Positions 1 to 55,830 of a stretch of DNA of 64,000 nucleotides are shown piece after piece. A program made the translations under genes and the position numbers. Each line of letters begins with the position of its first letter. The stretch's first letter is position 1. Origin of the DNA: Bryobacterales bacterium (GTDB lineage Bacteria > Acidobacteriota > Terriglobia > Bryobacterales > UBA6623); NCBI GenBank assembly GCA_965216545.1, contig OZ244172.1:3654763-3718762 (forward strand). Reading direction: 5' to 3'. The notes beneath the pieces are model-generated. The model did not search any database and was not told the origin of the DNA. It saw nothing but the letters and a program-made list of their open reading frames with translations.

Positions 1-216
1 AAGCCTCGGGCGCCGCGCCCGGGGAGATACGAATGGGTCCCACCCCTCCTCGGCCCTGGCAAGGGCCTGGCTGCAACCGAGTCGCGCCTCGGCAGGCGCA
101 TTGGGGAGCTCAGCGCCGTCCCGGGTCCACGGATTCACGCGTAGGCCGTTCCCTACCGCGCGGCCTTGGGAGGTCTCTCGTGCTAGACGAACCCTGGAGA
201 CAGGACGCTCGGCCCG

Positions 217-1329
217 CTACGGCTTCTTCTTTACGTAGCTCGGATCCTGCACCGGCCCGCTCTTTGCCGGCTTGCGCACGTAGTTCGGATCGATCACCAC
301 ATCGGAGGCGTCCGCTTCGTCCTCGCCCGTCTGCGGGATCCTGCGAACGTTGAAGACGTCTGTTCCCAGTGGCAGATCGCTGAGCAACTCGTTGACCCGT
401 CCGTTGAGGGAGCCCAAGAACGCAATGAGATCCTTCCGCTCGGCGTCGTCGAGGTCGATCGGCTCGATCTCGGCCTCGAGCCCGGCGGGAGCGGAGCCGC
501 CTCGCTCGTAGTGGTCGAGCACGGCATCGATCGTCAGCAGGTCGCCGTGGTGCATGAAGGAATAGCGCCGCAGCACGTCGCGCAGGCTTTGCGTCTTGTA
601 TTTCGTACCCGGCGGGTTGTCGCCTTGGTTCTCCCTCACGCCCGTATAGTGCTTTTGATGATCGGTCAGCATCGGTCCGTGATGGCAGCCGATGCAGCCG
701 GCTTTGCCTTCAAACAGCGCCATGCCGCGCTTGGCCGCCTCGCTCAGCGCCGTCTCGTCGCCTTGCAAGTAACGGTCGAGGTCGCTGTCATAGGAGACCA
801 GCGTGCGCTCGTAGGACGAGATAGCCTTTGCGATCAGATCGAACGTGATCGTTTCCCCGGGAAACGCCGCCTCGAACATGCGCCGGTAGCGCGCGCGCGC
901 AGCGACGCGACGCGCTCCCTCGGCTGGATCGAGGCCCATCTCGAACGGGTTCTCGAGCGGCTTGGAGGCTTGGTCCTCGAGCGTTTTCTCGCGTCCGTCG
1001 AAGAACATCGACCGCTGCCAGCCGACGTTGAGCAGGGTGGGCGTCTTGCGCCGCAGCTCGGTCTCGTTGAGCCCCCAGCCGCGCGAGAAGCCGTCGGTGA
1101 AGTAGAGCTCCGGCTTGTGGCAGGTGGAGCAACTGCGCCGGAAGTTCCGCGAGAGCACGTCGTCGAAGAAGAGCTCCTTGCCGAGCGCGACTTTCTCCGC
1201 CGTGGGCGGGTTGTCTGGCGGAAACGGCGGCATGCCGCCGAGCGGCTCGAGCTTCGGTTCGCCCGCCATGAGCAAGGCCGCGCAGGCGGCGCCGGTCAAC
1301 AGGATCCGGGCAACGGCGAAAACTCCCAT
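217..1329 (-). CDS. di-haem cytochrome c peroxidase (CCP/MauG family)
   Basis: ORF 217..1395 carries two CxxCH haem motifs (CSTCH, CIGCH). An internal ATG at 1329 precedes a hydrophobic signal-like segment (MGVFAVARILLTGAACAALL). The start could instead be 1395. Confidence 0.85.
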   Translation of the reverse strand: MGVFAVARILLTGAACAALLMAGEPKLEPLGGMPPFPPDNPPTAEKVALGKELFFDDVLSRNFRRSCSTCHKPELYFTDGFSRGWGLNETELRRKTPTLLNVGWQRSMFFDGREKTLEDQASKPLENPFEMGLDPAEGARRVAARARYRRMFEAAFPGETITFDLIAKAISSYERTLVSYDSDLDRYLQGDETALSEAAKRGMALFEGKAGCIGCHHGPMLTDHQKHYTGVRENQGDNPPGTKYKTQSLRDVLRRYSFMHHGDLLTIDAVLDHYERGGSAPAGLEAEIEPIDLDDAERKDLIAFLGSLNGRVNELLSDLPLGTDVFNVRRIPQTGEDEADASDVVIDPNYVRKPAKSGPVQDPSYVKKKP

Positions 1330-1622
1330 GTTGGGCCTGAGTTTAGCACTGGTCGCGCTCGGCCGGCCATGCCCAGATCCGTTCGGTAAGGGCATAGCGC
1401 GGGCGGAGAAATGCCGAACAAGGCCTGGAGTTGGCGCGCGGGGTCGCGTGAGCGGTCGCGGGACAGCGTAGGCGGGGCGCTGGCGGGAGTCGTGCCGCGA
1501 TCAGACGCAGCTCAACCGTGGCCGCGGCGGCGGCGAGGCCCAGCCAGGCTCCCCAGTCCTTACCCACGGATAAGAGGCGGAGCGGTTGCATCGCGGGCGT
1601 CCGCGTGGCATGCTGATATGGC

Positions 1623-1637
1623 GAACAAAAAGCGAAT
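1623..1637 (+). promoter_or_regulatory. candidate SOS (LexA-type) operator upstream of imuA
   Basis: GAAC-N7-GAAT direct repeat (gaacaaaaagcgaat) ends 7 nt before the imuA ATG. It is one mismatch from the GAAC-N7-GAAC/GTTC-N7-GTTC box reported for Alphaproteobacteria and Acidobacterium capsulatum. Based on motif and position only. Confidence 0.3.
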
Positions 1638-1643
1638 ATCGAG

Positions 1644-2333
1644 ATGGCCGCCTCCGCCAAGCTTCAACAGCTCGAGACTTTGCTCCGCCAGCGCGGGCTT
1701 GGGCGTGCTTTGCCGACGGCGGACAAGCCTGTGTACAAGCCGCTGCCGACCGGCAGAGCGGAGGTCGACCGCCGTCTGGGCGGCGGGTTGCCGCGCGGGG
1801 CGATCAGCGAAGTTGTTGGCCCGGAGTCGTCGGGGCGGACGTCATTGTTGTTCTCGGCGCTAGCCCGGGCGACGCAAGCGGGTGAGGTGGCGGCTTACAT
1901 TGACGCGACCGATTGTTTGGATCCGCGCTCGGCGGAGCAGGCTGGCATCGTGCTGGAGCGGTTGCTGTGGGTGCGCTGCGACTCGCGGGAGAGGCCGCGC
2001 TACGAGCGCCTGCGCGAGCAGCCGGCGGATCAGGCTTGGCAGGCGGTGAACCTAGTCGCGGCGGCGGGCGGCTTCGGGCTGATCGTAGCAGACTTGGGCG
2101 GGCTCTCCCGCCGCAAGCTCGGCGAATGGCAGCGCCGGCCGTGGGTGCGGCTCAGGCAAGCGATCGAGCATACCGCGACCGCGCTGACGGTGCTGGCGGA
2201 GCGGCACGTGGCGCAGGGCGCGGCCACGTTCGGCCTAGGAGGGACAAGGGACGGTTTGGGGACAAGGGACAGGGGTTTGGGGACAAGGGACCGGGGACAA
2301 GGGATAAGAGGACGGTTGTTGGAGGTGGCCTGA
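1644..2333 (+). CDS. imuA: ImuA, RecA-like protein of the imuA-imuB-dnaE2 mutagenesis cassette
   Basis: Degenerate RecA Walker-A-like motif GPESSGRTSLL and synteny with imuB and dnaE2. The C-terminal ~30 aa (GTRDGLGTRDRGLGTRDRGQG...) are encoded by the heptamer array, so the native C-terminus may have been altered. Confidence 0.8.
   Translation: MAASAKLQQLETLLRQRGLGRALPTADKPVYKPLPTGRAEVDRRLGGGLPRGAISEVVGPESSGRTSLLFSALARATQAGEVAAYIDATDCLDPRSAEQAGIVLERLLWVRCDSRERPRYERLREQPADQAWQAVNLVAAAGGFGLIVADLGGLSRRKLGEWQRRPWVRLRQAIEHTATALTVLAERHVAQGAATFGLGGTRDGLGTRDRGLGTRDRGQGIRGRLLEVA
2241..2307 (+). repeat. G-rich heptanucleotide tandem array L1 (GGGACAA family)
   Basis: Seven phased units at 2259-2307: GGGACAA GGGACAG GGGTTTG GGGACAA GGGACCG GGGACAA GGGATAA. 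Two further units lie at 2241-2254 and a stray GACAAGGGA at 2342-2350. The array sits in the imuA 3' end. Confidence 0.9.
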
Positions 2334-2749
2334 TGCTTAGAGACAAGGGACGAGGAGCAGGAGCAGGGGAGAAGGTTCGGAGCTACCGGGATCTCAAGGT
2401 TTGGCAGAGGGCGATGGATTTGGTGGAGCAGAGCTATCGCTTGGCGGCAATGCTGCCCTCACACGAGCTGTATGGATTGGCAACCCAGATTCGCCGTGCT
2501 GCTGTTTCCGTTCCCGCCAACATTGCGGAGGGGAACGGACGCGAGCACGTTGGCGACTACCTGCATCACGTCTCCATCGCTCATGGCTCGCTCATGGAGT
2601 TGGAAACACATTTCCTCATTGCGATTCGTCTTACGTACCTCCAGCCTGATCAAATTGAGCCGGCTTTCGAATTGACTACCGAAGTCGGCCGCATGCTAGG
2701 TGGTCTTCGTAAGAGTCTGAAGACGAAACGAAGCTCCAGGGGGAGGTAG
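2333..2749 (+). CDS. four-helix-bundle protein, 23S rRNA intervening-sequence / Avd family (TIGR02436, PF05635-like), copy 1
   Basis: Family-typical sequence SYRDLKVWQRAMDLV...QIRRAAVSVPANIAEGNGR...GSLMELETH. The ATG overlaps the imuA stop (TGATG) and GGAGG lies at 2321-2325. It corresponds to the C-terminal 138 aa of track ORF 1913..2749. Confidence 0.85.
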   Translation: MLRDKGRGAGAGEKVRSYRDLKVWQRAMDLVEQSYRLAAMLPSHELYGLATQIRRAAVSVPANIAEGNGREHVGDYLHHVSIAHGSLMELETHFLIAIRLTYLQPDQIEPAFELTTEVGRMLGGLRKSLKTKRSSRGR

Positions 2750-2754
2750 CTTCC

Positions 2755-2783
2755 TTGTCCCTTGTCCCCGGTCCCTTGTCCCC
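2755..2783 (-). repeat. C-rich heptamer array R1, inverted copy of L1
   Basis: Four phased units TTGTCCC TTGTCCC CGGTCCC TTGTCCC. Positions 2758-2783 are the exact 26-nt reverse complement of 2279-2304. Confidence 0.9.
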
Positions 2784-4296
2784 AGAGGGACCCTTGCCGC
2801 TCTTTGCAGCTTTGTATGTCGCTGACTTCGCTGTTGCAGCGTTGATCCGCGGCGAAGCGTACAGCCCCGCTACCGGGGTGATCGAGGGCGAGCCGCCCAA
2901 TCAGTTCGTCTGTACGGCCGATGAGGCGGCCCGCGCCGGCGGCGTACAGATCGGCATGCCGCTGGCCGCGGCCACCGCACGTTTCGCCTATGTCACTCGG
3001 GGCGAGGATCTGCGCATCCTCGAGCGCGACCCGGCGGCCGAAGCCCGCGCGCAGCGTGACTTATTGCGAGCAGCCGAAAACGCCACCCCACGCTATGAGG
3101 ATTCCGCGCTGGGGCTGGCGACGCTCGACTTCAGCGGATTGCGTGAGCCGCATGTGGCGGCGCGCAAACTTTATACAGAGGCGGAGGCGCTGGGGTTCAC
3201 GCCTCAGCTTGGGGTTTCGCGCAACCGCTTCGTCGCATTATGCGCCGCGCGCACACAGCCAGGATTGACGCATGTCTACCCCGGAGAAGAGGCAGGCTTT
3301 CTCTCGGTCCAGGGGCTCGACGTGCTGCCAATGGAAGCAGCCGAGATCGAAACGCTCGCACGCTGGGGCGTCCGCACGGTCGGCGAGCTGGCGCGCTTCA
3401 GCGAGAACGACCTGACAGCGCGCTTCGGCGAACGCGGCGCGCGGTTGGCGCGACTGGCGCGTGGCGAAGAAGCGTCGGTGATTGAGGCCTACACCGCGCC
3501 GCTCGAGCTCGAGGAGCGCCAGGAGTTCGACTGGGAAGTCGGAGAGCTCGAGCCGTTGGCGTTTGCGCTCTCGGGGATGCTCGAGCGGCTGTGCTTGAAG
3601 CTGCAGGGTCACAACTTGGCGGCGGCGCGCGTGGAGACCAAGCTCGAGCTTGCGAGCGGGCGGTTGTTCGCTCGCAAGATCGATTTGCCGTATCCGCTGA
3701 CCGACCCGCGCACGCTGCTCAGACTGGTGCGGCTCGATCTCGATGCGCATCCCCCAGGCGACGCCATCGTGGCCGCCCGCGTCGCCGCCGCGCCCACCGA
3801 GCGGCGTCGCGTGCAGTTCTCGCTCTTCGCGCCTGCCGCGCCGAGCCCGGAGAAGCTGGCTGTGACGCTGGCGCGCCTCTCGGGCCTGGTGGGCGCCGAG
3901 CGCGTGGGCGCTCCGGTCGCGCCGGACACGCACAAGCCGGGAGCGGCGGCGTTGGCGCTGTTCGCACCATCGCAAAGGGACAAGGGACAAGGGACAAAGG
4001 GACAAGGGACAGGGGACAAGAGAGGCGGCTCGCGTGAAGAACGCATCTTCCGCGTCTTCCGTCCGCCCTGGCGCGCCAAGGTCGAGACCCAAGCGCACGA
4101 GCCGGCGCATCTGGAGTCGCTCGATGTCGCCGGCCCCATCGAATCCAGCTCCGGCCCCTGGCGTGTTTCCGGCGAGTGGTGGAGCCCGGAGGGCTGGCAA
4201 TACGAGGAATGGGATGTGCTGGTGCAGGGGCGTATGTATCGGGCTTGCTTTGATCGGTTGAGCCGGGAGTGGTTTGTCACGGGGGCGTACGATTAG
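2755..4296 (+). CDS. imuB: ImuB, Y-family-polymerase-like protein
   Basis: N-terminus LFAALYVADFAVAALIR, typical size, and position between imuA and dnaE2. The TTG start at 2755 lies inside the repeat (GGAGG at 2740-2744). An alternative TTG at 2794 would give MPLFAALYV. Confidence 0.8.
   Translation: MSLVPGPLSPEGPLPLFAALYVADFAVAALIRGEAYSPATGVIEGEPPNQFVCTADEAARAGGVQIGMPLAAATARFAYVTRGEDLRILERDPAAEARAQRDLLRAAENATPRYEDSALGLATLDFSGLREPHVAARKLYTEAEALGFTPQLGVSRNRFVALCAARTQPGLTHVYPGEEAGFLSVQGLDVLPMEAAEIETLARWGVRTVGELARFSENDLTARFGERGARLARLARGEEASVIEAYTAPLELEERQEFDWEVGELEPLAFALSGMLERLCLKLQGHNLAAARVETKLELASGRLFARKIDLPYPLTDPRTLLRLVRLDLDAHPPGDAIVAARVAAAPTERRRVQFSLFAPAAPSPEKLAVTLARLSGLVGAERVGAPVAPDTHKPGAAALALFAPSQRDKGQGTKGQGTGDKRGGSREERIFRVFRPPWRAKVETQAHEPAHLESLDVAGPIESSSGPWRVSGEWWSPEGWQYEEWDVLVQGRMYRACFDRLSREWFVTGAYD
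3977..4019 (+). repeat. GGGACAA heptamer array inside imuB (third copy of family 1)
   Basis: Six GGGACAA-type heptamers in tandem (five GGGACAA, one GGGACAG, with one extra A after the third unit), translated in frame as QRDKGQGTKGQGTGDKRG. Positions 3977-3992 are the exact complement of 2753-2768. Confidence 0.9.
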
Positions 4297-4298
4297 CG

Positions 4299-4347
4299 GG
4301 TGCTGGGGGCTAGGTGTTAGGTGCTAGGTGCTAGGTGCTAGGTGCTG
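4299..4347 (+). repeat. G-rich heptanucleotide tandem array L2 (GGTGCTA family)
   Basis: Seven phased units: GGTGCTG GGGGCTA GGTGTTA GGTGCTA GGTGCTA GGTGCTA GGTGCTG. The array starts 3 nt after the imuB stop. Confidence 0.9.
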
Positions 4348-4373
4348 GGCGTTGGCTGATACGGAGGATTGAA

Positions 4374-4724
4374 ATGATTCGGAGTTATCGCGATCTTCAT
4401 GTTTGGCAGCGGGGGATGGATCTTGTTCTTTGCTGCTACGGCTTAGCCAAGAAGCTTCCAAGCGATGAGCTTTACGGATTGACGAGTCAGATTCGCAGAG
4501 CCGCCGTTGCTATACCTGCCAACATCGCCGAGGGGCACGGCAGAGACCACATCGGCGACTACCTGCGCCATCTCTCGATCGCCTCTGGATCGCTCACAGA
4601 GCTGGAAACCCACATCCTGATCACCGAAAGACTCTCGGCTATCTCTCTGAAGCCGACACTTCGATCTTTCATACCCAAGCCACTGAGCTGGGCCGCATGC
4701 TCTCCACTCTGTCAAAGAAGTTGA
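4374..4724 (+). CDS. four-helix-bundle protein, IVS/Avd family, copy 2 (C-terminus disrupted by an apparent +2 frameshift)
   Basis: MIRSYRDLHVWQRGMDLV...QIRRAAVAIPANIAEGHGR...GSLTELETH, with GGAGGA at 4363-4368. After ...ITERL (4634) the family-like sequence GYLSEADTSIFHTQATELGRMLSTLSKKLKARR continues in another frame, 4637-4756. Confidence 0.8.
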   Translation: MIRSYRDLHVWQRGMDLVLCCYGLAKKLPSDELYGLTSQIRRAAVAIPANIAEGHGRDHIGDYLRHLSIASGSLTELETHILITERLSAISLKPTLRSFIPKPLSWAACSPLCQRS

Positions 4725-4746
4725 AGGCCCGAAGAACCTCTTCCCC

Positions 4747-4781
4747 CAGCACCTGACACCTAACACCCAGCACCTAGCACC
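4747..4781 (-). repeat. C-rich heptamer array R2, inverted copy of L2
   Basis: Five phased units CAGCACC TGACACC TAACACC CAGCACC TAGCACC. Positions 4766-4781 are the exact complement of 4334-4349. The array ends 6 nt before the dnaE2 ATG. Confidence 0.9.
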
Positions 4782-4787
4782 ATTTAA

Positions 4788-7700
4788 ATGACCGAAATCC
4801 ACGCAGCCTCCGGTTTCAGCTTCCTCGAAGGCGCCTCCGACCCCGAGGACCTCGTCGCCGAAGCCAAGCGCCTCGAATACGAAGCCGTCGCGCTTTGCGA
4901 TCGCGACTCCGTCTCCGGCGCGCCGCGCTTCTTCAAAGCCGCCAAGCAAGCGCGCATCAAAGCGTTGGTCGGCGCCGAAATCTCGCTCGACCAACCGGGC
5001 GTCAAAAAGGGCGTCCGCAACGCCGAGCTCGACCGCCGCCTCACCGTGCTGGTCGAGAACCGCCGCGGCTACCAGAACCTCTGTCGCCTGCTCACGCGCA
5101 TGAACCTGCGCGCCCCCAAGGGCGAAGGGCGCGTCACTTGGGACGACCTCGACGACTTCTCCTCCGGCCTCGTCGCCCTACTGCACGACCTGCGCGACGA
5201 GGACCCAGTACGCGGCATCTTCGGCTCGCGCAACGTCTACGTCGAGCTGCAACGCCACATGCGCCGCGAGCAGGAGCGCGACAACCAGGCGCGCATCGAG
5301 CTCGCTCGCCGCTACGGGCTGCCGCTGGTCGCCTCGAACGGCGTGCGCTACGCCACCGAGGCGCGCAAGCCGCTCTACGACGTCTTCACCTGCCTGCGCT
5401 ACAAGCGCAAGCTCGATACTGTCGGCCGCTTGCTCGACGCGAACGCCGAGCGCTACCTCAAGCCGCAACGGTCTCTCGAGTATCTCTTCCGCGATCTGCC
5501 CGAAGCGCTCGCCAATGCGAGTGAGCTTGGGCGCCGGCTCGACTTCACGCTCGGCAATCTCGGATACGAGTTCCCGAAGTATCCGTTGCCGCCCGGCGAG
5601 ACAAATACCTCGTTCCTGCGCAAGATCGCCCTGCGCGGCGCCGCCGAACGCTACCGCGATTCGCCACATCGCGAGAAGGCTCTGCGGCAGATCGACCACG
5701 AGCTCGCCGTCATCGAGCGACTCAACCTCGAAGGCTATTTCCTGATCGTGTGGGACATCGTCGAGTTCGCGCGCAAGAACGGCATTCTGTGCCAAGGCCG
5801 CGGCTCGGCGGCGAACTCGGCCGTATGCTACTCCTGCGGCATCACCGCCGTCGACCCGGTCGGCATGGAGCTGCTCTTCGAGAGGTTTCTCTCCGAGGAG
5901 CGCGGCGAGTGGCCCGACATCGACGTCGACTTGCCCTCGGGCGACCAGCGCGAGCAGGTGATCCAACACGTCTACCGCCGCTACGGCGAGCGTGGCGCCG
6001 GCATGACGGCCAACGTCATCACCTACCGCGGCAAGATGGCCGTGCGCGAGGCGGGCAAGGTGCTGGGCTTTCCGGAGGAGATGATTGCGCGCCTGTCGAA
6101 GTGTATCCACAGCTTCGAGTACACCGACGACAATGACAAGCTCGTCTCGCAGGCCGTCGCCGCCGGCTTCGACGCTTCGCACCCGCGCGTCGGCCACCTG
6201 TTGCGCACTTGCATGCAGATGCAGGGGCTGCCGCGGCACCTGGGCCAGCACTCGGGCGGAATGGTGATCTGCCAGGGCGATCTCGACGCCGTCGTGCCGC
6301 TCGAGAATGCGTCGATGCCCGGCCGCGTCGTCGTGCAGTGGGACAAGGAGGACTGCGCTGACCTCGGCGTCATCAAGGTCGACTTGCTCGGCCTCGGCAT
6401 GATGGCGGCGCTCGAGGAGAGCGTCGAGACCATCCGTTCGCGGGGCGGAGACTTCGACTTGGCGCGCATCCCGCCCGATGATCCCGCGACTTACCAGATG
6501 ATCCAGAAGGCGGACACGGTCGGCGTGTTCCAGATCGAGAGCCGCGCGCAAATGGCGACGCTGCCACGCATGCGGCCGGATCATTTCTACGATCTGGTCG
6601 TAGAGGTGGCCATCATCCGCCCCGGGCCGATCACGGGCAACATGGTGCACCCGTATCTGGCGCGGCGGCAGGGCAGGGAGCCGGTGACCTATCCGCACCC
6701 CTCGCTCGAGCCGGTGTTGAAGCGCACGCTCGGGGTGCCGCTGTTCCAGGAGCAGTTGTTGCGCGTGGCTATGGTGGCGGCGAACTTTACCGGCGGCGAG
6801 GCCGAAGAGCTGCGCCGGGCGATGGGCTTCAAGCGCTCGGTCGAGCGCATGGGCTCGATCGAGCGCAAGCTCCGTGAGGGCTTGGCCGAGAACGGCATCG
6901 AGGGCGAGGCGGCGGAGCAGATCGTACGCTCGATTACTTCGTTCGCACTGTATGGATTTCCGGAGTCGCACGCGGCGAGCTTCGCTTTGCTCGCCTACGC
7001 GAGCTCCTATTTGAAGTGCCACTACCCGGCGGAGTTTCTGACAGCGTTGCTCAACTGCCAGCCGATGGGCTTCTACTCGCCGGCCGTGCTCGTCAGAGAT
7101 GCGCAGCGGCACGGCGTGCGGGTGCGGCCGATCGACGTGGCGTTGTCAGGGGCTAGGTGTCAGGTGCTGGGCGCTGGGGAGATGCGGTTGGGGTTGCGGT
7201 TTGTCTCGGGGCTCAGGGCGGAGGCGGCGGAGCGCATTGTGGGGCTGCGGCCGTATCGCTCGATGGAAGACTTCGTGCGACGGACGCGCTTGGCGAAGAC
7301 GGAGCTGGACGTGCTGGCGGAGATTGGGGCGCTGAACTCGCTAGGAGAAGGCGTCCACCGGCGCGAGGCGTTGTGGCAGATCGAGAGGGCGTATCGCCCG
7401 GCGGGGCCGCTGTTCGAGTCCCAAGACGACCGGCTGCCCGAGCCGGGGCCGCTGGCCAAGATGATGCCGCTCGAGCGGCTCGACGCCGACTATCGCGGGG
7501 CGGGCCTGACGACGGGGCCGCACCCGATGCACTACCTGCGGCCGGCGCTAGCCGATCGCAACGTGCACAGCGCGCGCGACCTCGAGTCGATCGCCCACGG
7601 CCGCCGCGTGCGTGTGGCCGGCGCGGTCATCACGCGGCAGCGACCGGGCACGGCCAAGGGCTTCTGCTTCATCACGTTGGAGGATGAAACTGGAGTTTCG

Positions 7701-7877
7701 AATCTGATTCTCACCCCGGACGTGTTTCAGGAGCACCGGCTGGCCGTGCTGCAGGAGTCGTTCCTGATCGGCGAGGGGTCGCTACAGAAGGTCGACGGCA
7801 CGATCGCGGTGAAGACGGACTTCGTCGAGCCGATGGGGGCGATCGAGCTCGAGATGGAGTCGCATGATTTTCATTAG
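4788..7877 (+). CDS. dnaE2: error-prone DNA polymerase DnaE2 (Pol III alpha-like, ImuC)
   Basis: 1029 aa with an N-terminal PHP domain (HAASGFSFLEGAS) and Pol III alpha core motifs (GRGSAANSAVCY, PDIDVD, GMVI, FQIESR). Lies in synteny after imuA and imuB. Confidence 0.92.
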   Translation: MTEIHAASGFSFLEGASDPEDLVAEAKRLEYEAVALCDRDSVSGAPRFFKAAKQARIKALVGAEISLDQPGVKKGVRNAELDRRLTVLVENRRGYQNLCRLLTRMNLRAPKGEGRVTWDDLDDFSSGLVALLHDLRDEDPVRGIFGSRNVYVELQRHMRREQERDNQARIELARRYGLPLVASNGVRYATEARKPLYDVFTCLRYKRKLDTVGRLLDANAERYLKPQRSLEYLFRDLPEALANASELGRRLDFTLGNLGYEFPKYPLPPGETNTSFLRKIALRGAAERYRDSPHREKALRQIDHELAVIERLNLEGYFLIVWDIVEFARKNGILCQGRGSAANSAVCYSCGITAVDPVGMELLFERFLSEERGEWPDIDVDLPSGDQREQVIQHVYRRYGERGAGMTANVITYRGKMAVREAGKVLGFPEEMIARLSKCIHSFEYTDDNDKLVSQAVAAGFDASHPRVGHLLRTCMQMQGLPRHLGQHSGGMVICQGDLDAVVPLENASMPGRVVVQWDKEDCADLGVIKVDLLGLGMMAALEESVETIRSRGGDFDLARIPPDDPATYQMIQKADTVGVFQIESRAQMATLPRMRPDHFYDLVVEVAIIRPGPITGNMVHPYLARRQGREPVTYPHPSLEPVLKRTLGVPLFQEQLLRVAMVAANFTGGEAEELRRAMGFKRSVERMGSIERKLREGLAENGIEGEAAEQIVRSITSFALYGFPESHAASFALLAYASSYLKCHYPAEFLTALLNCQPMGFYSPAVLVRDAQRHGVRVRPIDVALSGARCQVLGAGEMRLGLRFVSGLRAEAAERIVGLRPYRSMEDFVRRTRLAKTELDVLAEIGALNSLGEGVHRREALWQIERAYRPAGPLFESQDDRLPEPGPLAKMMPLERLDADYRGAGLTTGPHPMHYLRPALADRNVHSARDLESIAHGRRVRVAGAVITRQRPGTAKGFCFITLEDETGVSNLILTPDVFQEHRLAVLQESFLIGEGSLQKVDGTIAVKTDFVEPMGAIELEMESHDFH
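7149..7176 (+). repeat. GGTGCTA-family heptamer array inside dnaE2 (third copy of family 2)
   Basis: Four phased units GGGGCTA GGTGTCA GGTGCTG GGCGCTG, translated as GARCQVLGAG. Positions 7154-7171 are the exact 18-nt complement of 4745-4762. Confidence 0.85.
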
Positions 7878-7890
7878 GCTCACGAAAAAG

Positions 7891-10119
7891 TCATGGTCCC
7901 TCGCCTCCCCGGCGCAAGGTGACTCCCTGGTCCTCGACTTCCACGCGGATTCTCTCGAACACGGCCGCCGCTTCTCCCGACTCCATCGACCCTGGGCTGT
8001 TCCACTCAACGACGCTCCCGCGGGCGTACAGCCTCAGCCTCTGGCTCAACGCCGCCGGCGATCGCAGGTCACACCCATCCAAGAGGATCGTCCAACCGCG
8101 ATCCATGGCCGTGCTCGTTTCGAGGGTCAATGGAACTGGACCGACACTTTGACGAGGCTCACACTCAGTACAGATCTTGCGCCATCTCACTTGGTCAGAT
8201 TCCGACCATAGTCGTCCGGGCGCACATCGCAGCGCTCGATGCAGAGCATTGCGCATGGAGCTGTCTGCCTCCCTCTCCAACCGAGTCCAGATCGACCCGC
8301 GCGTCGTATCGGATTCATGGCGGACCAAGGCTCGGGCGGCGTCCAAAGCCGCCTCCGGCGACGGATCGTCGAGCTGACGCAGCGCCAGAGCTTCCAACTG
8401 TGGGCTCCAGGCGACCCTCCCGATCGACGTCAGCAGCCGTCTCCAGCAACCGCGATTCTCCCGGCTACCCAGAGCCTTCTCGACCAGCGTCGCCCCTTCG
8501 GCCGGCCGCACCCGTACGAGATACGCCAGCAAGCTCTGCTCCAGGTTGCAAGGAGCCGGACTCACCGAGCGATAGATCGCCAGCGCCCTGTCCGACACCG
8601 CAGACGAAGCATAGCGCGCTAGAACCGCCGAGTCTCTGCTCGTAGCTCGTCTCTCCAATCTGGCCATTGTAGGCTCGTCGATCTCTGGATAGACGCCATC
8701 CGGCAACACCCTTGCCAGAAGTCGCAGGCTCGCCATTGAAAGCTCCTGCATCAGGTCCGCCAGAACGAGCGACCTGCCTTTGGCGGGATCGAGCTCCGCG
8801 ACGCGCTCCAGCATCGCGCTCCAAGCCAGCGTCTTGCGCAGCGCGGTCGGATCCAGAGAGGGCTTTGCCCGTAGCGCCGGCAAGACCTCGAGCAACGCCG
8901 GCAGGATGTCCGGTCCCCGCAGTCGCTCCCAGCGCCGGCCGTAAAGCCAACCCGTCTGTTCTTCGGTCGAAAGCGCCAGGAACTCCGCGGGCGTGGGCGC
9001 CGGGTCCTCCACCAGCGGACGCAGCGCTTTTGCTTCCTCGGGTAGATACCTCTCTATGATCCGAAAGTCCGCCTTGCGAGCCGCCGGGGTCTTGGTTGGC
9101 GCCAACCTCGCTAGCAAGCGTGCGAAATCCGTTGCGATTTCCTCACGACGCCCCTGGCGCATGCGGGCTTCGGCAATCGCAGCCTCGTCCACTTCCGCCG
9201 GCGCCCAGGGGAGGGTTGAAGGGAACTCTGAAGCGATCTCGTTTACTAGGAGCAAATGAAACAGGCTTCCAGGGAGGCTATAGCGCGGATCCTCGAGGTA
9301 ACGAAGCAGGCGAGCGCGCAGATAGCTACGCTGACCGGATGCTGCTAGCGCCAACGTGATCGCGCCGTCGTACTGGCCGCGCGCTATGCCGTGCGCGTCT
9401 AGCAAGGCGTCGACCGCCGTCGCCGTTCCGAGATACCGCAGTGCTTTCACAGCGCCTCGGACCTGCTCGTCGAGCTCCTGAGGCAGCGGCCGCGGCAGCG
9501 GCCACGGGTCATCGTAGGCTGCGGCTTTCGCCAGAGCAGCCGTCGCCGCGGCCATGACCACCGCGTCGGCTTGCTCGTCCCGCGGCAGAATCTCGAGATG
9601 GAGCATTCCGGATGCCGCCAGCCTTGGACCTGCTTGTCCCTCCGTCGGATCGACTAGACCGACGCGTTTCGAAACAACGAAGACCCGGTAGCGCCCCGGC
9701 CTGGCGAAACGAATCCACTCGTCGAGGTCCGCTTCAATCTCGACCGGCTCGATTCCCAATGTCGGGTAGCCTCGCAGTCCGCCCGCGGACCCTCCCGCTA
9801 CGCCGCTGCCGTAGTACCACTCCAACGGATCGGACGCCTCTGCCGATCTGTCCACGACGAATCGGTCGACGTGCAGCCGACCGCTGCGATCATAGCGGGC
9901 GCCGTTGACCCGGTAGGTCTCCGAGCGATCCGAGGCGAAGGCCAGGGTCACCGTGATCCGCTCGCCGATCCGGTAGGAAGTACGCGGCTCTGCAAAGCGG
10001 GCCTCAAATCGCAACCCAGGCAGGTTCGCGGACCGGAGAGCGGAATGCTCGTCGGAGAACGAGTCTGCGGCCGAGATGCTGCACACCGCAAGAAGCATCG
10101 CATAGAGCCGGGTGGTCAT
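7891..10119 (-). CDS. hypothetical secreted protein (742 aa), helical-repeat rich
   Basis: Long ORF with signal-like N-terminus MTTRLYAMLLAVCSISA and non-shadow amino-acid composition. I recognise no family. Confidence 0.6.
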   Translation of the reverse strand: MTTRLYAMLLAVCSISAADSFSDEHSALRSANLPGLRFEARFAEPRTSYRIGERITVTLAFASDRSETYRVNGARYDRSGRLHVDRFVVDRSAEASDPLEWYYGSGVAGGSAGGLRGYPTLGIEPVEIEADLDEWIRFARPGRYRVFVVSKRVGLVDPTEGQAGPRLAASGMLHLEILPRDEQADAVVMAAATAALAKAAAYDDPWPLPRPLPQELDEQVRGAVKALRYLGTATAVDALLDAHGIARGQYDGAITLALAASGQRSYLRARLLRYLEDPRYSLPGSLFHLLLVNEIASEFPSTLPWAPAEVDEAAIAEARMRQGRREEIATDFARLLARLAPTKTPAARKADFRIIERYLPEEAKALRPLVEDPAPTPAEFLALSTEEQTGWLYGRRWERLRGPDILPALLEVLPALRAKPSLDPTALRKTLAWSAMLERVAELDPAKGRSLVLADLMQELSMASLRLLARVLPDGVYPEIDEPTMARLERRATSRDSAVLARYASSAVSDRALAIYRSVSPAPCNLEQSLLAYLVRVRPAEGATLVEKALGSRENRGCWRRLLTSIGRVAWSPQLEALALRQLDDPSPEAALDAARALVRHESDTTRGSIWTRLEREADSSMRNALHRALRCAPGRLWSESDQVRWRKICTECEPRQSVGPVPLTLETSTAMDRGWTILLDGCDLRSPAALSQRLRLYARGSVVEWNSPGSMESGEAAAVFERIRVEVEDQGVTLRRGGEGP

Positions 10120-10219
10120 GAGGTCATAGACGCCGCCGGGACGCTGAAAGTGCCGGGCTGCCGCCTAACTTGATTTGTTGTACGCTGTGCAGGCGCTTTT
10201 TGCACGGCGCGATCTACCT

Positions 10220-11254
10220 ATGTTCAGCTCGAAACGCCTTCTCATGCTTACGGTCGTTCTAGCCGCCTCCGCCCTAGCCCAGCCCTACCCTAACCCGTAC
10301 CGCATGGTCGAAGGCTGGGCCAAGCTGCCCGACGGCCGGCCGATGGGCGCGGTCGGCGGCGTCCGCATCGACCCCGACGGCAAGCACCTTTGGGCGGTCA
10401 TCCGTTGCGAAACCACCGAGAACACCCGCTTTGGCAGCGAGTGTCTGAGCTCGAACCTCGACTCGGTCATGAAGTTTGAGCTGGCCACGGGCAAAGCGGT
10501 GGCCAGCTTCGGCGGCGGCATGTTCATCTGGCCGCACGGCATCGACGTAGACCGCGAAGGCAACGTCTGGGTGACCGATGCCGTACTCAAAGCGCGCGTC
10601 CCGCCAGGCAAGCGTGGCCATCAAGTCGTCAAGTTCAGCCCCACGGGCAAAGTGCTCATGCGTCTTGGCATGCCAGGCGAGCCTGGCGCCGGAGAGGATC
10701 ACTTCGAGTCTCCCGCCGACGTCGTCATCGCCCCAGACGGCCACATCTTCGTCGCGGACGGCCACAACGAAGACGGCAACAACCGCATCGTCAAGCTGAC
10801 GCCCGACGGCAAGTTCGTCAAGGCCTGGGGGCGAACCGGCTACGGGCCCGGCGAGTTCCGCACCCTGCACGCGTTGGCTTTCGACGAGCGCGGACGCCTC
10901 TTCGTCGCCGACCGCGGCAACAACCGCGTGCAAATCTTCGACCAGGAGGGCGAGCACCTCGCGACATGGACGCAGTTCGGGCGGCCGAGCGGCATCTACT
11001 TCGGCCCCGACGACACCATCTATGTGACGGATTCCGAGTCCGACGACGTCCAAAACCCGGGCTGGGAGATGGGCATCCGCATCGGCGATGCGAAGCTCGG
11101 CTGGGTGCGCTATTTCGTGCGCTTCCCGTGGGGCGATCCGCGCAGCACGGCCGGCAGCGGGGCGGAGTTCGTTGCGGTCGACGGCGAGGGGAATCTGTAT
11201 GCGGGCGAGCCGTTCCGGCGCGTGCTGCAGAAGTATGTGCGGGTGATGCCCTAG
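10220..11254 (+). CDS. NHL-repeat six-bladed beta-propeller protein (secreted)
   Basis: Signal peptide from the ATG at 10220 (MFSSKRLLMLTVVLAASALA). Repeated NHL-like motifs are present: GNVWVTD, IFVADGHN..NNRIVKL, LFVADRGNNRVQIFD, IYVTDSE. Confidence 0.8.
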   Translation: MFSSKRLLMLTVVLAASALAQPYPNPYRMVEGWAKLPDGRPMGAVGGVRIDPDGKHLWAVIRCETTENTRFGSECLSSNLDSVMKFELATGKAVASFGGGMFIWPHGIDVDREGNVWVTDAVLKARVPPGKRGHQVVKFSPTGKVLMRLGMPGEPGAGEDHFESPADVVIAPDGHIFVADGHNEDGNNRIVKLTPDGKFVKAWGRTGYGPGEFRTLHALAFDERGRLFVADRGNNRVQIFDQEGEHLATWTQFGRPSGIYFGPDDTIYVTDSESDDVQNPGWEMGIRIGDAKLGWVRYFVRFPWGDPRSTAGSGAEFVAVDGEGNLYAGEPFRRVLQKYVRVMP

Positions 11255-11925
11255 GCCGAGTGGTCGCGCGCTTCTTCGAGCAAGCGTTGAGCGCGGCTGG
11301 GGTTGTAGACACCGCAAGGGCAGAACCGCGCCAGCGTCGTGACGGCTTGCTCAGGCGATCGACGGCCCTCGCGCACCATGTCGAGCATTTTCCGCGCCAT
11401 GTTGAAGCTCACCATGCCGTGCCCGCACATGGTGGCGAGCTTCAATACTTGCGAGTTGGGCAAGTGATCGTGCGGGTCGTTGAAGCCGAGCGAGTACTCC
11501 ACGCTGTGTCGCTTGAGGCCGCAACTCTCCGCGCATTCCTTGGCGCCGTCCACCGAAGTCGACATGTTGACCGAGAGGCCGAGGTCGGCTTCGATGACGT
11601 CTTGCAGAGCCGCCGCGGCCTTCTCGCGCGTGTTGAAGACAGCCGCGCAGGTCCCCGGCTTGGCGACATCATTGATCACCGAGTCCCAATCCGGGCTGAT
11701 GTCCCGCTTCCAATGCGCGGTCGGGTTCAGGTGGCGCTCGGGCAGGAAGCTGCCGCGGTTGCCGTTGCCCATGTTCGAGGGCCCGTGCTTGGCGCAGATC
11801 CGCAGAAACTGCTTCTGTTTTTCGACCGCGCCTTGGTCGTTGCGGCCCGGCGAAGCGATGCAAAAAAGGATGAAGTCGTCGCGGAAGCTTTCCGAGTCAC
11901 CGTACCGGTGCAAGGTGTTCGTCAT
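11251..11925 (-). CDS. conserved hypothetical protein (Cys-containing, family not recognised)
   Basis: Protein-like composition from the internal ATG at 11925 (MTNTLHRYGDSESF...). Overlaps the upstream ferredoxin-like gene by 29 nt, which suggests translational coupling. Confidence 0.6.
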   Translation of the reverse strand: MTNTLHRYGDSESFRDDFILFCIASPGRNDQGAVEKQKQFLRICAKHGPSNMGNGNRGSFLPERHLNPTAHWKRDISPDWDSVINDVAKPGTCAAVFNTREKAAAALQDVIEADLGLSVNMSTSVDGAKECAESCGLKRHSVEYSLGFNDPHDHLPNSQVLKLATMCGHGMVSFNMARKMLDMVREGRRSPEQAVTTLARFCPCGVYNPSRAQRLLEEARDHSA

Positions 11926-12748
11926 GGACTTCGTCCTTCTTCTCTTCGTTCGTGGCGCGGCCCAGGCCCATGTTGGTCTTGGCGCGGTAGTAACGGAAGC
12001 CGAGCTCGTCGAGGATGGGCGCCAGCAGGCGATCTTCGCCTTCTGCATCGCAGCGGGTCGAGATGCCCACGGCGGTGACCGTGTCGATCTCGAGGTTGAC
12101 GCGGCGAACGGTCTCGAGCACGGAGGCGGCTTGGTCGATCGTGGTCTTGATCTCGACGATCGCGGAGAGGATCTTTTCGTTGAGGATGTCCTCGCGCAGG
12201 TCGCCCGTCGAGGGATCCGTCATGATGTGCGTGATCGGATTCTTTTTCTCGAAGGCGACGCCCATCTTGGCGAGCGCACGCGTCATGGTCTGAATCTGAT
12301 GGAACCGCACGCCAACACCTGGACGTCCGAATTCGATGGTGTAGCCGACCTCGCCGACCTTGACGCGTGGGTAGACGTCGTTGGTCTTCACCTCTTCGGT
12401 GCCGCGTCCCTTGATGCCGGTCGACTTGTGCTCGACGACGGGATCGGAGAAGACCTGGCGCACCAGCCGCGGCATCTCGAGCTCGTTCATCGAGAACGCG
12501 GTCGTGGGGCAGACGTCGGGCTCGGGCTCGAAGCGCAACCGCACGGCTTTGGCGATCTTGCGAATGGTGCGCACGATGGTGGGGTTGAGCTGCTCCTGGC
12601 TCATGCCGCGCAGGCACGTGCCGCACTCGACGCACTCCTCGTCGTTGATGCGGGCGCGGTTGATGGCGGGATCGATGTAGATCGCGCCCATGGGGCAAAC
12701 CGGAATGCAGTTCGCGCAGGCGACGCACTTGTTCGGATCGATACGCAT
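11897..12748 (-). CDS. 4Fe-4S dicluster domain protein with large C-terminal extension
   Basis: CVACANCIPVCP, then CVECGTC with a distal ..DVCP. Start taken at the ATG at 12748 (MRIDPNKC). Confidence 0.7.
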   Translation of the reverse strand: MRIDPNKCVACANCIPVCPMGAIYIDPAINRARINDEECVECGTCLRGMSQEQLNPTIVRTIRKIAKAVRLRFEPEPDVCPTTAFSMNELEMPRLVRQVFSDPVVEHKSTGIKGRGTEEVKTNDVYPRVKVGEVGYTIEFGRPGVGVRFHQIQTMTRALAKMGVAFEKKNPITHIMTDPSTGDLREDILNEKILSAIVEIKTTIDQAASVLETVRRVNLEIDTVTAVGISTRCDAEGEDRLLAPILDELGFRYYRAKTNMGLGRATNEEKKDEVHDEHLAPVR

Positions 12749-55757: not shown

Positions 55758-55830
55758 AAAAAACTCCCGCCGGCCGCCGTCCGCCCAACCGAGCCTTGCG
55801 AGCTCGTCGTCGGACGCCGGCCAGCGAGAG
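55758..55830 (-). terminator. long GC hairpin followed by U6 (intrinsic terminator candidate) inside a 557-bp gap
   Basis: On the minus strand, CUCUCGCUGGCC (55830-55819) pairs with GGCCGGCGGGAG (55775-55764): 12 bp including 2 G-U pairs. Inner helices CGUCCG/CGGACG and CGAGC/GCUCG are present. UUUUUU follows immediately (55763-55758). Confidence 0.5.

Follow-up and report, generated by a model that had tools for sequence, protein, structure and literature searches.

An in-frame heptamer array in dnaE2 as a probable relic of intervening-sequence-type repeats in a Bryobacterales mutasome operon

Introduction

Why does a gene for an error-prone DNA polymerase carry, in frame, the exact reverse complement of a repeat arm that ends just before its own start codon? 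The question is raised by a 64,000-nucleotide stretch of a Bryobacterales genome (GCA_965216545.1, contig OZ244172.1, positions 3,654,763 to 3,718,762; hereafter the window), in which positions 1644-7877 form an imuA-imuB-dnaE2 mutasome operon (Pfam matches: RecA, IMS, and PHP/DNA_pol3_alpha/finger/HHH_6/OB). Both junctions of this operon are occupied by a small open reading frame (ORF) of PF05635 (2333-2749 and 4374-4724), the '23S rRNA-intervening sequence protein' family of four-helix-bundle (4HB) proteins. Each ORF is part of a cassette with a G-rich left arm and a C-rich right arm built from tandem heptamers, and each cassette has a further G-rich array of its own family inside the next gene. 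An original prediction, made from the DNA letters alone, saw in this layout either a deliberate alternative-pairing or protein-binding arrangement, or a shared mechanism of cassette insertion such as recombination between arrays. In our analysis the dnaE2 copy is probably a vertically inherited, translated relic of the local spread of intervening-sequence-type arrays, tolerated because it makes an acceptable β-hairpin.

Results

The dnaE2 array belongs to the family of the cassette arms

Direct reading of positions 7149-7178 confirmed four phased, in-frame units (GGGGCTA GGTGTCA GGTGCTG GGCGCTG) followed by GG, which encode G-A-R-C-Q-V-L-G-A-G within the segment S-G-A-R-C-Q-V-L-G-A-G-E-M-R. 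Direct reading and a pattern search likewise verified that positions 7154-7171 (TAGGTGTCAGGTGCTGGG) are the exact reverse complement of 4745-4762, in the right arm of cassette 2. With up to three mismatches allowed, the 18-mer had six occurrences in the 64 kb, where 0.01 would be expected from shuffled sequences. The left arm accounted for four of them, and the right arm and dnaE2 for one each. Repeat finding (D3/I16) gave 87% identity between 7149-7178 and the left arm and 91% complementarity to the right arm over 23 nucleotides, which supports the membership of the dnaE2 copy in the array family of the cassette arms. Once three units were removed, the dnaE2 segment matched the left arm at 27 of 29 nucleotides by direct reading. 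The predicted improbability of a chance match was therefore borne out by the shuffles, but the exact length of the match lost its weight: the longest exact match between the two arms of cassette 2 is itself 16 nucleotides, so that 18 nucleotides within one repeat family are not exceptional. The 18-mer was absent from all 175 fetched loci.

In this genome the dnaE2 copy has the unit GGTGTCA (TGACACC) in common with the right arm alone, GGTGTTA being found in the left arm. Either GGTGCTA or GGTGTTA at the second unit would create an in-frame TAG in dnaE2. The dnaE2 unit is GGTGTCA (GGTGCCA in the close relative L083) because these commoner variants would terminate the gene. Its presence in the right arm requires no special cause, since GGTGTCA was the commonest arm unit among unrelated cassettes.

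The parallel drawn with family 1 also proved real. A GGGACAA array, a 4HB ORF, a CCTTGTC array and a second GGGACAA array inside imuB follow one another in the same order, and the triad is thus present twice in the window and again in L083.

The array overprints a conserved stretch at the edge of an insertion hot spot

To place the array in the protein, we fetched 80 DnaE2 ortholog loci (L001-L080), nearly all titled Acidobacteriota (two bear other labels) and with Bryobacterales closest. In the protein alignment the segment follows ...RPIDV and is equivalent to a conserved S-[DE]-W-x-C-T-[LI]-E stretch, in line with the expectation that it replaces a stretch of this type (usual form S-x-W-x-C-T-L-E). 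The window segment has 42 nucleotides, the length found in insert-free orthologs such as L004 (SNHRCRVETDDRIR), with Ser, Cys and Val in register. As both the length and the S..C.V pattern are unchanged, the array overprints the motif and does not extend it. Its aligned counterpart in Taq Pol III alpha (2hpi) is 'SGFDFKVVGE-EI', and it falls inside the Pfam HHH_6 match (residues 776-860). There it would supply the first strand and the turn of a small, putatively surface-exposed β-hairpin at the N-terminal edge of the HhH region.

Directly after this stretch DnaE2 varies most in length. Among 80 aligned sequences (79 ortholog loci and the window), 43 had at least 7 extra residues there, and further length hot spots were found near residues 71, 855 and 877. 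All inserts at the hot spot were in frame and stop-free, and many were built from heptamer arrays. These comprised solo arrays of GGGACAA (four units, L001), CAGTGGC or CAGTTGC (L026 and L037) and TCAGCTC (L062), and hairpins of the form array-core-inverse array (L021, L044, L055 and L068). The mutasome operon of another Bryobacterales member (L027, 3450-10669) has been heavily invaded by nested repeats, its inserts consisting of ACGGTTC arrays and the palindromes GGCACGGCATGCCGTGCC and GGGACCGGCAATCCTGCCGGTCC; its ORFs are intact despite this, encoding ImuA of 310, ImuB of 733 and DnaE2 of 1225 residues.

Two further observations concern this region of the protein. In L034 and L072 an insert of ~50 residues lies ~30 residues past the hot spot and carries two CxxC pairs (…CPKCRCDDP…CNVCSHEW…); by its sequence this insert in the HhH region looks like a zinc ribbon. 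In-gene hairpins of Terriglobia (L021 9386-9544, L055 9386-9544, L068 9506-9709 and L048 9458-9598) have a common core between their heptamer arms (…AGTAAAACC…GTCATTCCGACCTCCGAGCG…GGGGCGGAGGAATCTC…), and the conservation of this core suggests a nested small repeat element.

The dnaE2 string persists in relatives without the cassette

Analysis of the closest genomes revealed that the string does not depend on its cassette. L083 (92.7% DnaE2 identity) has the same imuA-4HB-imuB-4HB-dnaE2 layout, both array families and both in-gene copies, and carries TCAGGGGCTGGGTGCCAGGTGCTGGGGGATCGG at the same dnaE2 codons; the non-coding left arm has 12 units in L083 compared with 8 in the window. In L174 and L175 (at least 90% DnaE2 identity) the imuB-dnaE2 junction lacks both a 4HB ORF and arms, and the two genomes still keep 42-nucleotide array-like strings at the site, which match the window at 30 of 42 and 35 of 42 positions, respectively (L175, TCAGGGGATAAGTGTCAGGTGATAGGGGATCGG). 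The segment is 42 nucleotides long in all four genomes, with a period-7 self-identity of 0.54-0.64. Between the window and L083 the dnaE2 copies agree at 37 of 42 nucleotides, and each of the two is less similar to its own arms than to the other copy. The original prediction had named an identical string in cassette-free orthologs as evidence for ancestral coding sequence; a similar string was found (L175), an identical one was not. We consider it probable that the dnaE2 string is old, orthologous and vertically inherited.

At the other junction a cassette has probably been lost. L174 has a single GGGACAA unit in the tail of imuA and an 'RDKG' remnant in ImuB, and its ImuA and ImuB identities put it inside a clade whose outgroup (L081/L082) bears cassette 1. 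Accordingly, L174 has most likely lost cassette 1 and retained the in-gene relics. The junctions of L174 (3560-3800 and 5364-5990) hold other small ORFs without a Pfam match, one of 55 residues on the minus strand and one of 208 residues on the plus strand, and it seems that these junctions receive small genes of various kinds. At the end of imuA in L001, where no 4HB ORF is present, GGAGGTGGCTTGATG is kept and followed by ATC TAG, possibly the remnant of a lost cassette.

The 4HB cassettes resemble 23S intervening sequences

We surveyed 80 metagenomic 4HB loci, 76 of which had adequate flanks. Inverted period-7 arrays bracketed the ORF in 54 of the 76, well above shuffled controls, and the arms were built from many different heptamer units. 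Of 63 non-redundant cassettes, 61 had their G-rich arm on the 5' side of the sense strand, and the upstream neighbour ORF was co-oriented with the cassette in 52 of 65 cases. GGTGTCA arms were found in quite different settings, between a histidine kinase and a response regulator (L084) and between polA and ruvAB (L092). No mutasome genes were detected by tblastn in the 80 metagenomic 4HB loci, and no 4HB ORFs within 7 kb in the 80 DnaE2 ortholog loci. We also compared operon array units with 4HB arm units; the comparison was uninformative, as the 112 arm units saturate heptamer space and shuffled units scored equally.

Separately, additional arrays of a shared family recur around 4HB cassettes in other contexts, as in the dense repeat nest of L107, outside any mutasome operon. 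There, a GGTGATA/GGTGTCA array of ~24 units (434-606, ~170 nucleotides) is followed after 1.9 kb by a 4HB cassette, itself placed behind an AAA-ATPase-like gene, and two ORF-less array hairpins come further downstream.

The 23S rRNA element of Coxiella has a 28-bp terminal inverted-repeat stem with the S23p ORF in its loop; its tandem heptamers vary in number between strains, RNase III cleaves in the stem and the ORF decays (PMC4990558). Because they are built in the same way, we regard the window cassettes as intervening-sequence-type elements in an mRNA operon. Beyond the Coxiella paper and general papers on heptamer repeats, our search of the accessible literature turned up no account that links PF05635/S23p with heptamer arrays outside rRNA, or imuB or dnaE2 with tandem repeats.

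Period-7 arrays are concentrated in the mutasome operon

To determine the density of such arrays, the 80 ortholog loci were analyzed with Tandem Repeats Finder, comparing 444 kb of operon with 788 kb of flanks. This revealed 128 period-7 arrays in imuA-imuB-dnaE2 and 12 in the flanks, a ~19-fold enrichment per kb (binomial p = 6e-43). Period-8 arrays showed a similar bias (47 inside and 4 outside), and may be octamer families or imperfect heptamer arrays; periods 9, 10 and 12 had no operon bias. Within the operon, 66 arrays were inside dnaE2 ORFs, 17 inside imuB and 3 inside imuA, with 21 at the imuB-dnaE2 junction and 15 at the imuA-imuB junction. Of the arrays without a local inverted partner, 43 of 98 shared a family with another array at the same locus, and family sharing was 24% within loci compared with 7.6% between loci. 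As solo arrays so often share a family within their locus, the third copy in the window follows a common pattern.

The stop codon of the preceding gene and the start codon of the following one mark the limits of the junction hairpins. The folded stem would bring the two codons close together, and insertion at these points may therefore be tolerated. In Terriglobia, ORF-less hairpins occupy the imuB-dnaE2 junction, the place where the window has a 4HB ORF.

A model for the origin of the dnaE2 copy

Taken together, these data suggest the following sequence of events. The cassettes at the operon junctions have the orientation of the host genes; within the polycistronic transcript they are predicted to fold, and RNase III probably cuts their stems. 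Arrays of one family may reach nearby permissive sites by slippage, template switching or short-tract conversion; such a DNA-level link between arrays, by recombination or conversion, is plausible. In dnaE2, an array of GGTGYYR units would have overprinted the native codons without lengthening them, keeping the frame, Ser, Cys and Val. AGGTGY is shared by the array unit and the native Arg/Lys-Cys codons, and this coincidence may have provided a microhomology anchor, which would explain why frame, length and Cys were retained. Only the TAG-avoiding variants GGTGTCA or GGTGCCA would be allowed at this place, and this restricted choice may be the reason that the dnaE2 copy carries the unit perfectly matching the right arm. 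Translated relics would then outlast the cassettes. A dedicated function of the dnaE2 copy is unlikely, and its strong complementarity to the C-rich arm would be a by-product of their membership in the same repeat family.

Several points weigh against this model. The ~19-fold enrichment in the mutasome operon includes both junctions and is not accounted for by tolerated relics alone; the junctions in particular go beyond an explanation by protein loops, since tolerant loops do not account for them. The overprinting and microhomology steps are ones that we infer from the sequence, and the relatives compared are all metagenome-assembled sequences. In the two cassette-bearing genomes, 22-25 of 28 positions of the dnaE2 string agree with the arm units (GGTGCTA/GGTGCTG), compared with 18-22 of 28 in cassette-free ones, a difference that could reflect ongoing conversion or selection for pairing. 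Finally, the dnaE2 copy is the second-best partner of the C-rich arm in the 64 kb (-52 to -55 kcal/mol, compared with a background median of -15), and the same rank was found in L083 (-55 to -59 kcal/mol). Given this complementarity, a long-range interaction of RNA or single-stranded DNA could still take place.

Alternative explanations

The first alternative is a variant of the relic model that differs from it in timing. The right arm and the dnaE2 copy, inverted and 2.4 kb apart, would have undergone short-tract gene conversion recently, and the arrays would still be exchanging sequence. We regard this as possible, if doubtful. The restriction of GGTGTCA/TGACACC to these two places would fit such an exchange, as would the better match to their own arms in cassette-bearing genomes and the excess of family sharing within loci. 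In addition, the window departs from L175 at three positions within the 18-mer (AAG to AGG, ATA to CTG), each time toward the arm sequence. However, CAG at the Gln codon, which avoids a TAG, is common to all four relatives, and TGT/TGC-CAG is therefore ancestral in dnaE2. The right arm may simply retain the unit that is commonest elsewhere, and between the window and L083 the dnaE2 copies are more alike than copy and arms are within either genome.

A regulatory role was also considered, in which the C-rich arm pairs either with the left arm or with the dnaE2 copy and so switches mutasome translation or RNase III processing. The strength, site specificity and preservation in L083 of the predicted duplex are in keeping with such a switch. 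Family 1 has the same triad, with a duplex of -65 kcal/mol between its C-rich arm and the imuB copy, and the C-rich arms lie directly 5' of the imuB and dnaE2 starts, neither of which has a visible Shine-Dalgarno motif. Most tests of the pairing pointed the other way, and we judge the switch unlikely. The C-rich arm of cassette 2 is predicted to bind the left arm more strongly than the dnaE2 copy (-65.9 compared with -51.7 kcal/mol), and the local hairpins (-66 and -79 kcal/mol) are not only stabler but six times closer. The longest exact complement between arm and copy falls from 18 nucleotides in the window to 10 in L083. Cross-genome duplexes equalled or exceeded those within genomes (-51.3 vs -51.7 and -61.9 vs -54.7 kcal/mol), and thus arm and copy show no co-evolution. 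The 42-nucleotide segment evolves at an average rate (88% nucleotide identity compared with 86% gene-wide), and L174 and L175 have kept the string in spite of lacking the partner arm. G:U pairs were no more frequent than A:C mismatches in 63 cassette stems (73 vs 74), which gives no sign of selection on the stems as sense-strand RNA helices. The deliberate pairing put forward originally is therefore not upheld.

A broader functional reading would unite the heptamer-array hairpins, with or without a 4HB ORF, as one intervening-sequence-type selfish class that resides in transcribed hairpins, spreads locally and has had an ancient and favoured nest in the mutasome operon of Acidobacteriota. The stems gathered there (the long-range pairing 4745-4781/7149-7178 included) might brake the error-prone polymerase after transcription, for example through RNase III, with the dnaE2 copy a working part. 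We consider this improbable.

Instead, the arrays might be recognized by the 4HB (Avd-like) protein or by machinery that moves cassettes, the in-gene arrays being attachment sites or footprints left when cassettes enter or leave. The close tie of arrays to 4HB ORFs and their fixed polarity would agree with this, as would the nests of arrays that surround cassettes and the ORF-less hairpins at the same junction in Terriglobia. PF05635 is moreover related to bAvd, the Avd protein of diversity-generating retroelements, which binds nucleic acids. Yet no recombinase or reverse transcriptase adjoins the operon, and neither target-site duplication nor polymorphism between empty and filled sites was found. 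The second 4HB ORF is frameshifted in the window, and the 80 array-rich operon loci mostly lack a 4HB gene within 7 kb. On balance we give little credence to this explanation.

That the string is native S-x-x-x-C-x-V coding sequence and resembles the arms by chance is very unlikely and has been largely refuted. The native motif of the 80 orthologs is indeed already similar to (TCAGGTG)n in register (9.8 of 24 matches, null 5.9), and similar strings occur in cassette-free relatives. The window, however, scores 18 of 24, at least 16 having a null probability of ~1e-4. It also matches the left arm at nearly every position, and shuffles predict just 0.01 occurrences of the 18-mer. Distant orthologs (L001, L005, L002 and L004) have unrelated nucleotides at these codons, and in L001 a family-1 array occupies the same site. 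One native string that appeared array-like (L003, 16 of 24) was not significant given the raised baseline of the site.

Lastly, a phase-variable contingency locus, at which a single unit added or deleted would break the dnaE2 frame and toggle the mutasome between active and inactive states, was rejected: 7 is not a multiple of 3 and unit numbers do vary in the non-coding arms and between Coxiella strains, but the four units in dnaE2 all differ and would be a poor slippage substrate, the 42-nucleotide length is constant in the four close relatives and the ORFs are intact in all 80 orthologs, L027 included.

Features of the operon

The features of the operon are listed in Table 1.

Table 1. Genes and heptamer arrays of the imuA-imuB-dnaE2 operon in the window
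Feature	Position	Strand	Remarks
imuA	1644..2333	+	RecA-like; opens the mutasome operon; Pfam
Family-1 G-rich array (GGGACAA)	2239..2313	+	Left arm of cassette 1; in frame in the imuA 3' end (…GLGGTRDGLGTRDRGLGTRDRGQGIRG…)
4HB ORF number 1	2333..2749	+	PF05635, 138 residues; E = 1.7e-35
Family-1 C-rich right arm (CCTTGTC units), cassette 1	2753..2790	+	Directly 5' of the imuB start
imuB, catalytically inactive Y-family polymerase homolog	2794..4296	+	TTG at 2794 is the presumed start
Solo family-1 array (GGGACAA, ~6 units)	3975..4020	+	In frame, in the variable linker of ImuB (QRDKGQGTKGQGTGDKRG)
Family-2 G-rich left arm (GGTGCTA family, ~8 units), cassette 2	4299..4355	+	Begins 2 nucleotides past the imuB stop
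4HB ORF number 2	4374..4724	+	PF05635; E = 7.8e-30; GGAGG 8 nucleotides upstream
Family-2 C-rich right arm (CACCTAG/CACCTGA units), cassette 2	4745..4781	+	Ends 6 nucleotides before the dnaE2 ATG
dnaE2, error-prone Pol III alpha homolog, 1029 residues	4788..7877	+	Pfam; protein cluster name 'error-prone DNA polymerase'
Solo family-2 G-rich array	7149..7178	+	Inside dnaE2, in frame, stop-free

The operon thus holds three family-1 and three family-2 arrays. No further period-7 array of at least three units was found in the 64 kb, where the only other candidate was a 2.7-copy CCGCCGG run at 55767-55785. An inverted-repeat search (I1-I5) gave cassette arms of 37-50 nucleotides that are 78-97% complementary, and the arms at 4299-4355 and 4745-4790 pair in the minimum-free-energy fold (z = -4.3). 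The ATG of the first 4HB ORF overlaps the imuA stop codon (ATGA), with a GGAGG motif upstream, and the family-1 left arm is translated as part of the ImuA C-terminus before a conserved ...LEVA tail and the stop codon. Compared with the intact ortholog in L083 (124 residues), the second 4HB ORF has a 2-nucleotide insertion near 4631 that frameshifts its last helix and C-terminus, reflecting either a decaying ORF or an assembly error. The coding family-1 arrays have at least four G3 tracts with 4-nucleotide loops and conform to a canonical sense-strand G-quadruplex motif; a comparably regular G3-tract pattern is missing from family 2. A GAAC-N7-GAAT sequence lies at 1623-1637, 7 nucleotides upstream of the imuA ATG, and resembles the direct-repeat LexA box GTTC-N7-GTTC that has reportedly been found in Acidobacterium capsulatum. 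If this LexA-like box is real, the entire operon, cassettes included, would be SOS-regulated. The neighbours of the operon are a cytochrome c peroxidase gene, ORFs without a Pfam match and a gene for an NHL-repeat protein.

Discussion

The 18-nucleotide match that raised the question is a minor matter in itself; the wider patterns around it are of more consequence. We found no description of three of them in the searchable literature. Outside rRNA, PF05635 4HB genes usually have the packaging of 23S intervening sequences, with insertion in the host direction at operon junctions; in Acidobacteriota the arrays are far denser in the SOS mutasome operon than around it; and they are translated in frame at a small number of fixed sites in DnaE2 and ImuB. 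The most interesting point is the concentration of repeats in the mutasome operon. Should this enrichment be functional, it would amount to a new layer of control on error-prone polymerases. Should it not be, it would offer a clear bacterial case outside Rickettsia of selfish repeats shaping protein sequence, one DnaE2 having grown from ~1030 to 1225 residues by translated inserts, and also a useful natural map of where DnaE2 and ImuB accept insertions.

Among known systems, a link to bAvd (PF22296) is indicated by weak bAvd-like Pfam matches of the window 4HB ORFs and by one relative annotated as bAvd family. A diversity-generating retroelement was considered and rejected: no reverse transcriptase was found among the immediate neighbours of the operon, the rest of the window being unscanned for it, and there was no template/variable repeat pair. 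The only long direct repeat found was that formed by the two 4HB ORFs (D1).

Heptameric repeats also occur among the cyanobacterial STRR sequences. With heptameric simple sequence repeats the arrays share tandem 7-nucleotide units, about four per array, a G-rich strand and transcription. Published examples include GGGNATC in Xanthomonas and Nostoc (PMC4692102) and TAACTGA in Beggiatoaceae and Cyanobacteria (PMC4679880). Whereas the published repeats are mostly intergenic and under-represented in coding sequence, those described here form inverted pairs around an ORF and also arrays translated in frame (7149-7178, 3975-4020 and 2239-2313), and family 2 does not have the G3 tracts needed for a canonical G-quadruplex.

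Closer in behaviour are the palindromic elements of Rickettsia, credited to Ogata et al. 2000, which are said to be selfish repeats inserted in frame in protein-coding genes. They are reported to show the same in-frame tolerance at apparently permissive surface sites, to be translated as added or substituted peptide and to be inherited vertically. The arrays here likewise form a multi-copy family and lie in frame and stop-free within intact host ORFs. The Rickettsia elements are unrelated in sequence and spread over many genes, whereas the present ones consist of 7-nucleotide units, are associated with 4HB ORFs and gather in one operon.

The nearest counterparts are the S23p intervening sequences of Coxiella, Leptospira and Brucella (PMC4990558), which have the same PF05635 ORF in the loop of a terminal inverted-repeat stem, the same heptamers of variable copy number on the 5' side, co-orientation with the host and a decay-prone ORF. 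They sit in a 23S rRNA helix, whereas the elements described here lie in imuA-imuB-dnaE2 junctions and, elsewhere, between histidine kinase and response regulator genes or between polA and ruvA. An Rfam search of window positions 1-12000 at permissive E-values returned no match. Here, moreover, each arm is a complete heptamer array, further solo arrays sit in frame in neighbouring genes, and excision by RNase III is presumed by analogy. The element type thus combines S23p intervening sequences, in-frame selfish repeats and heptameric simple sequence repeats.

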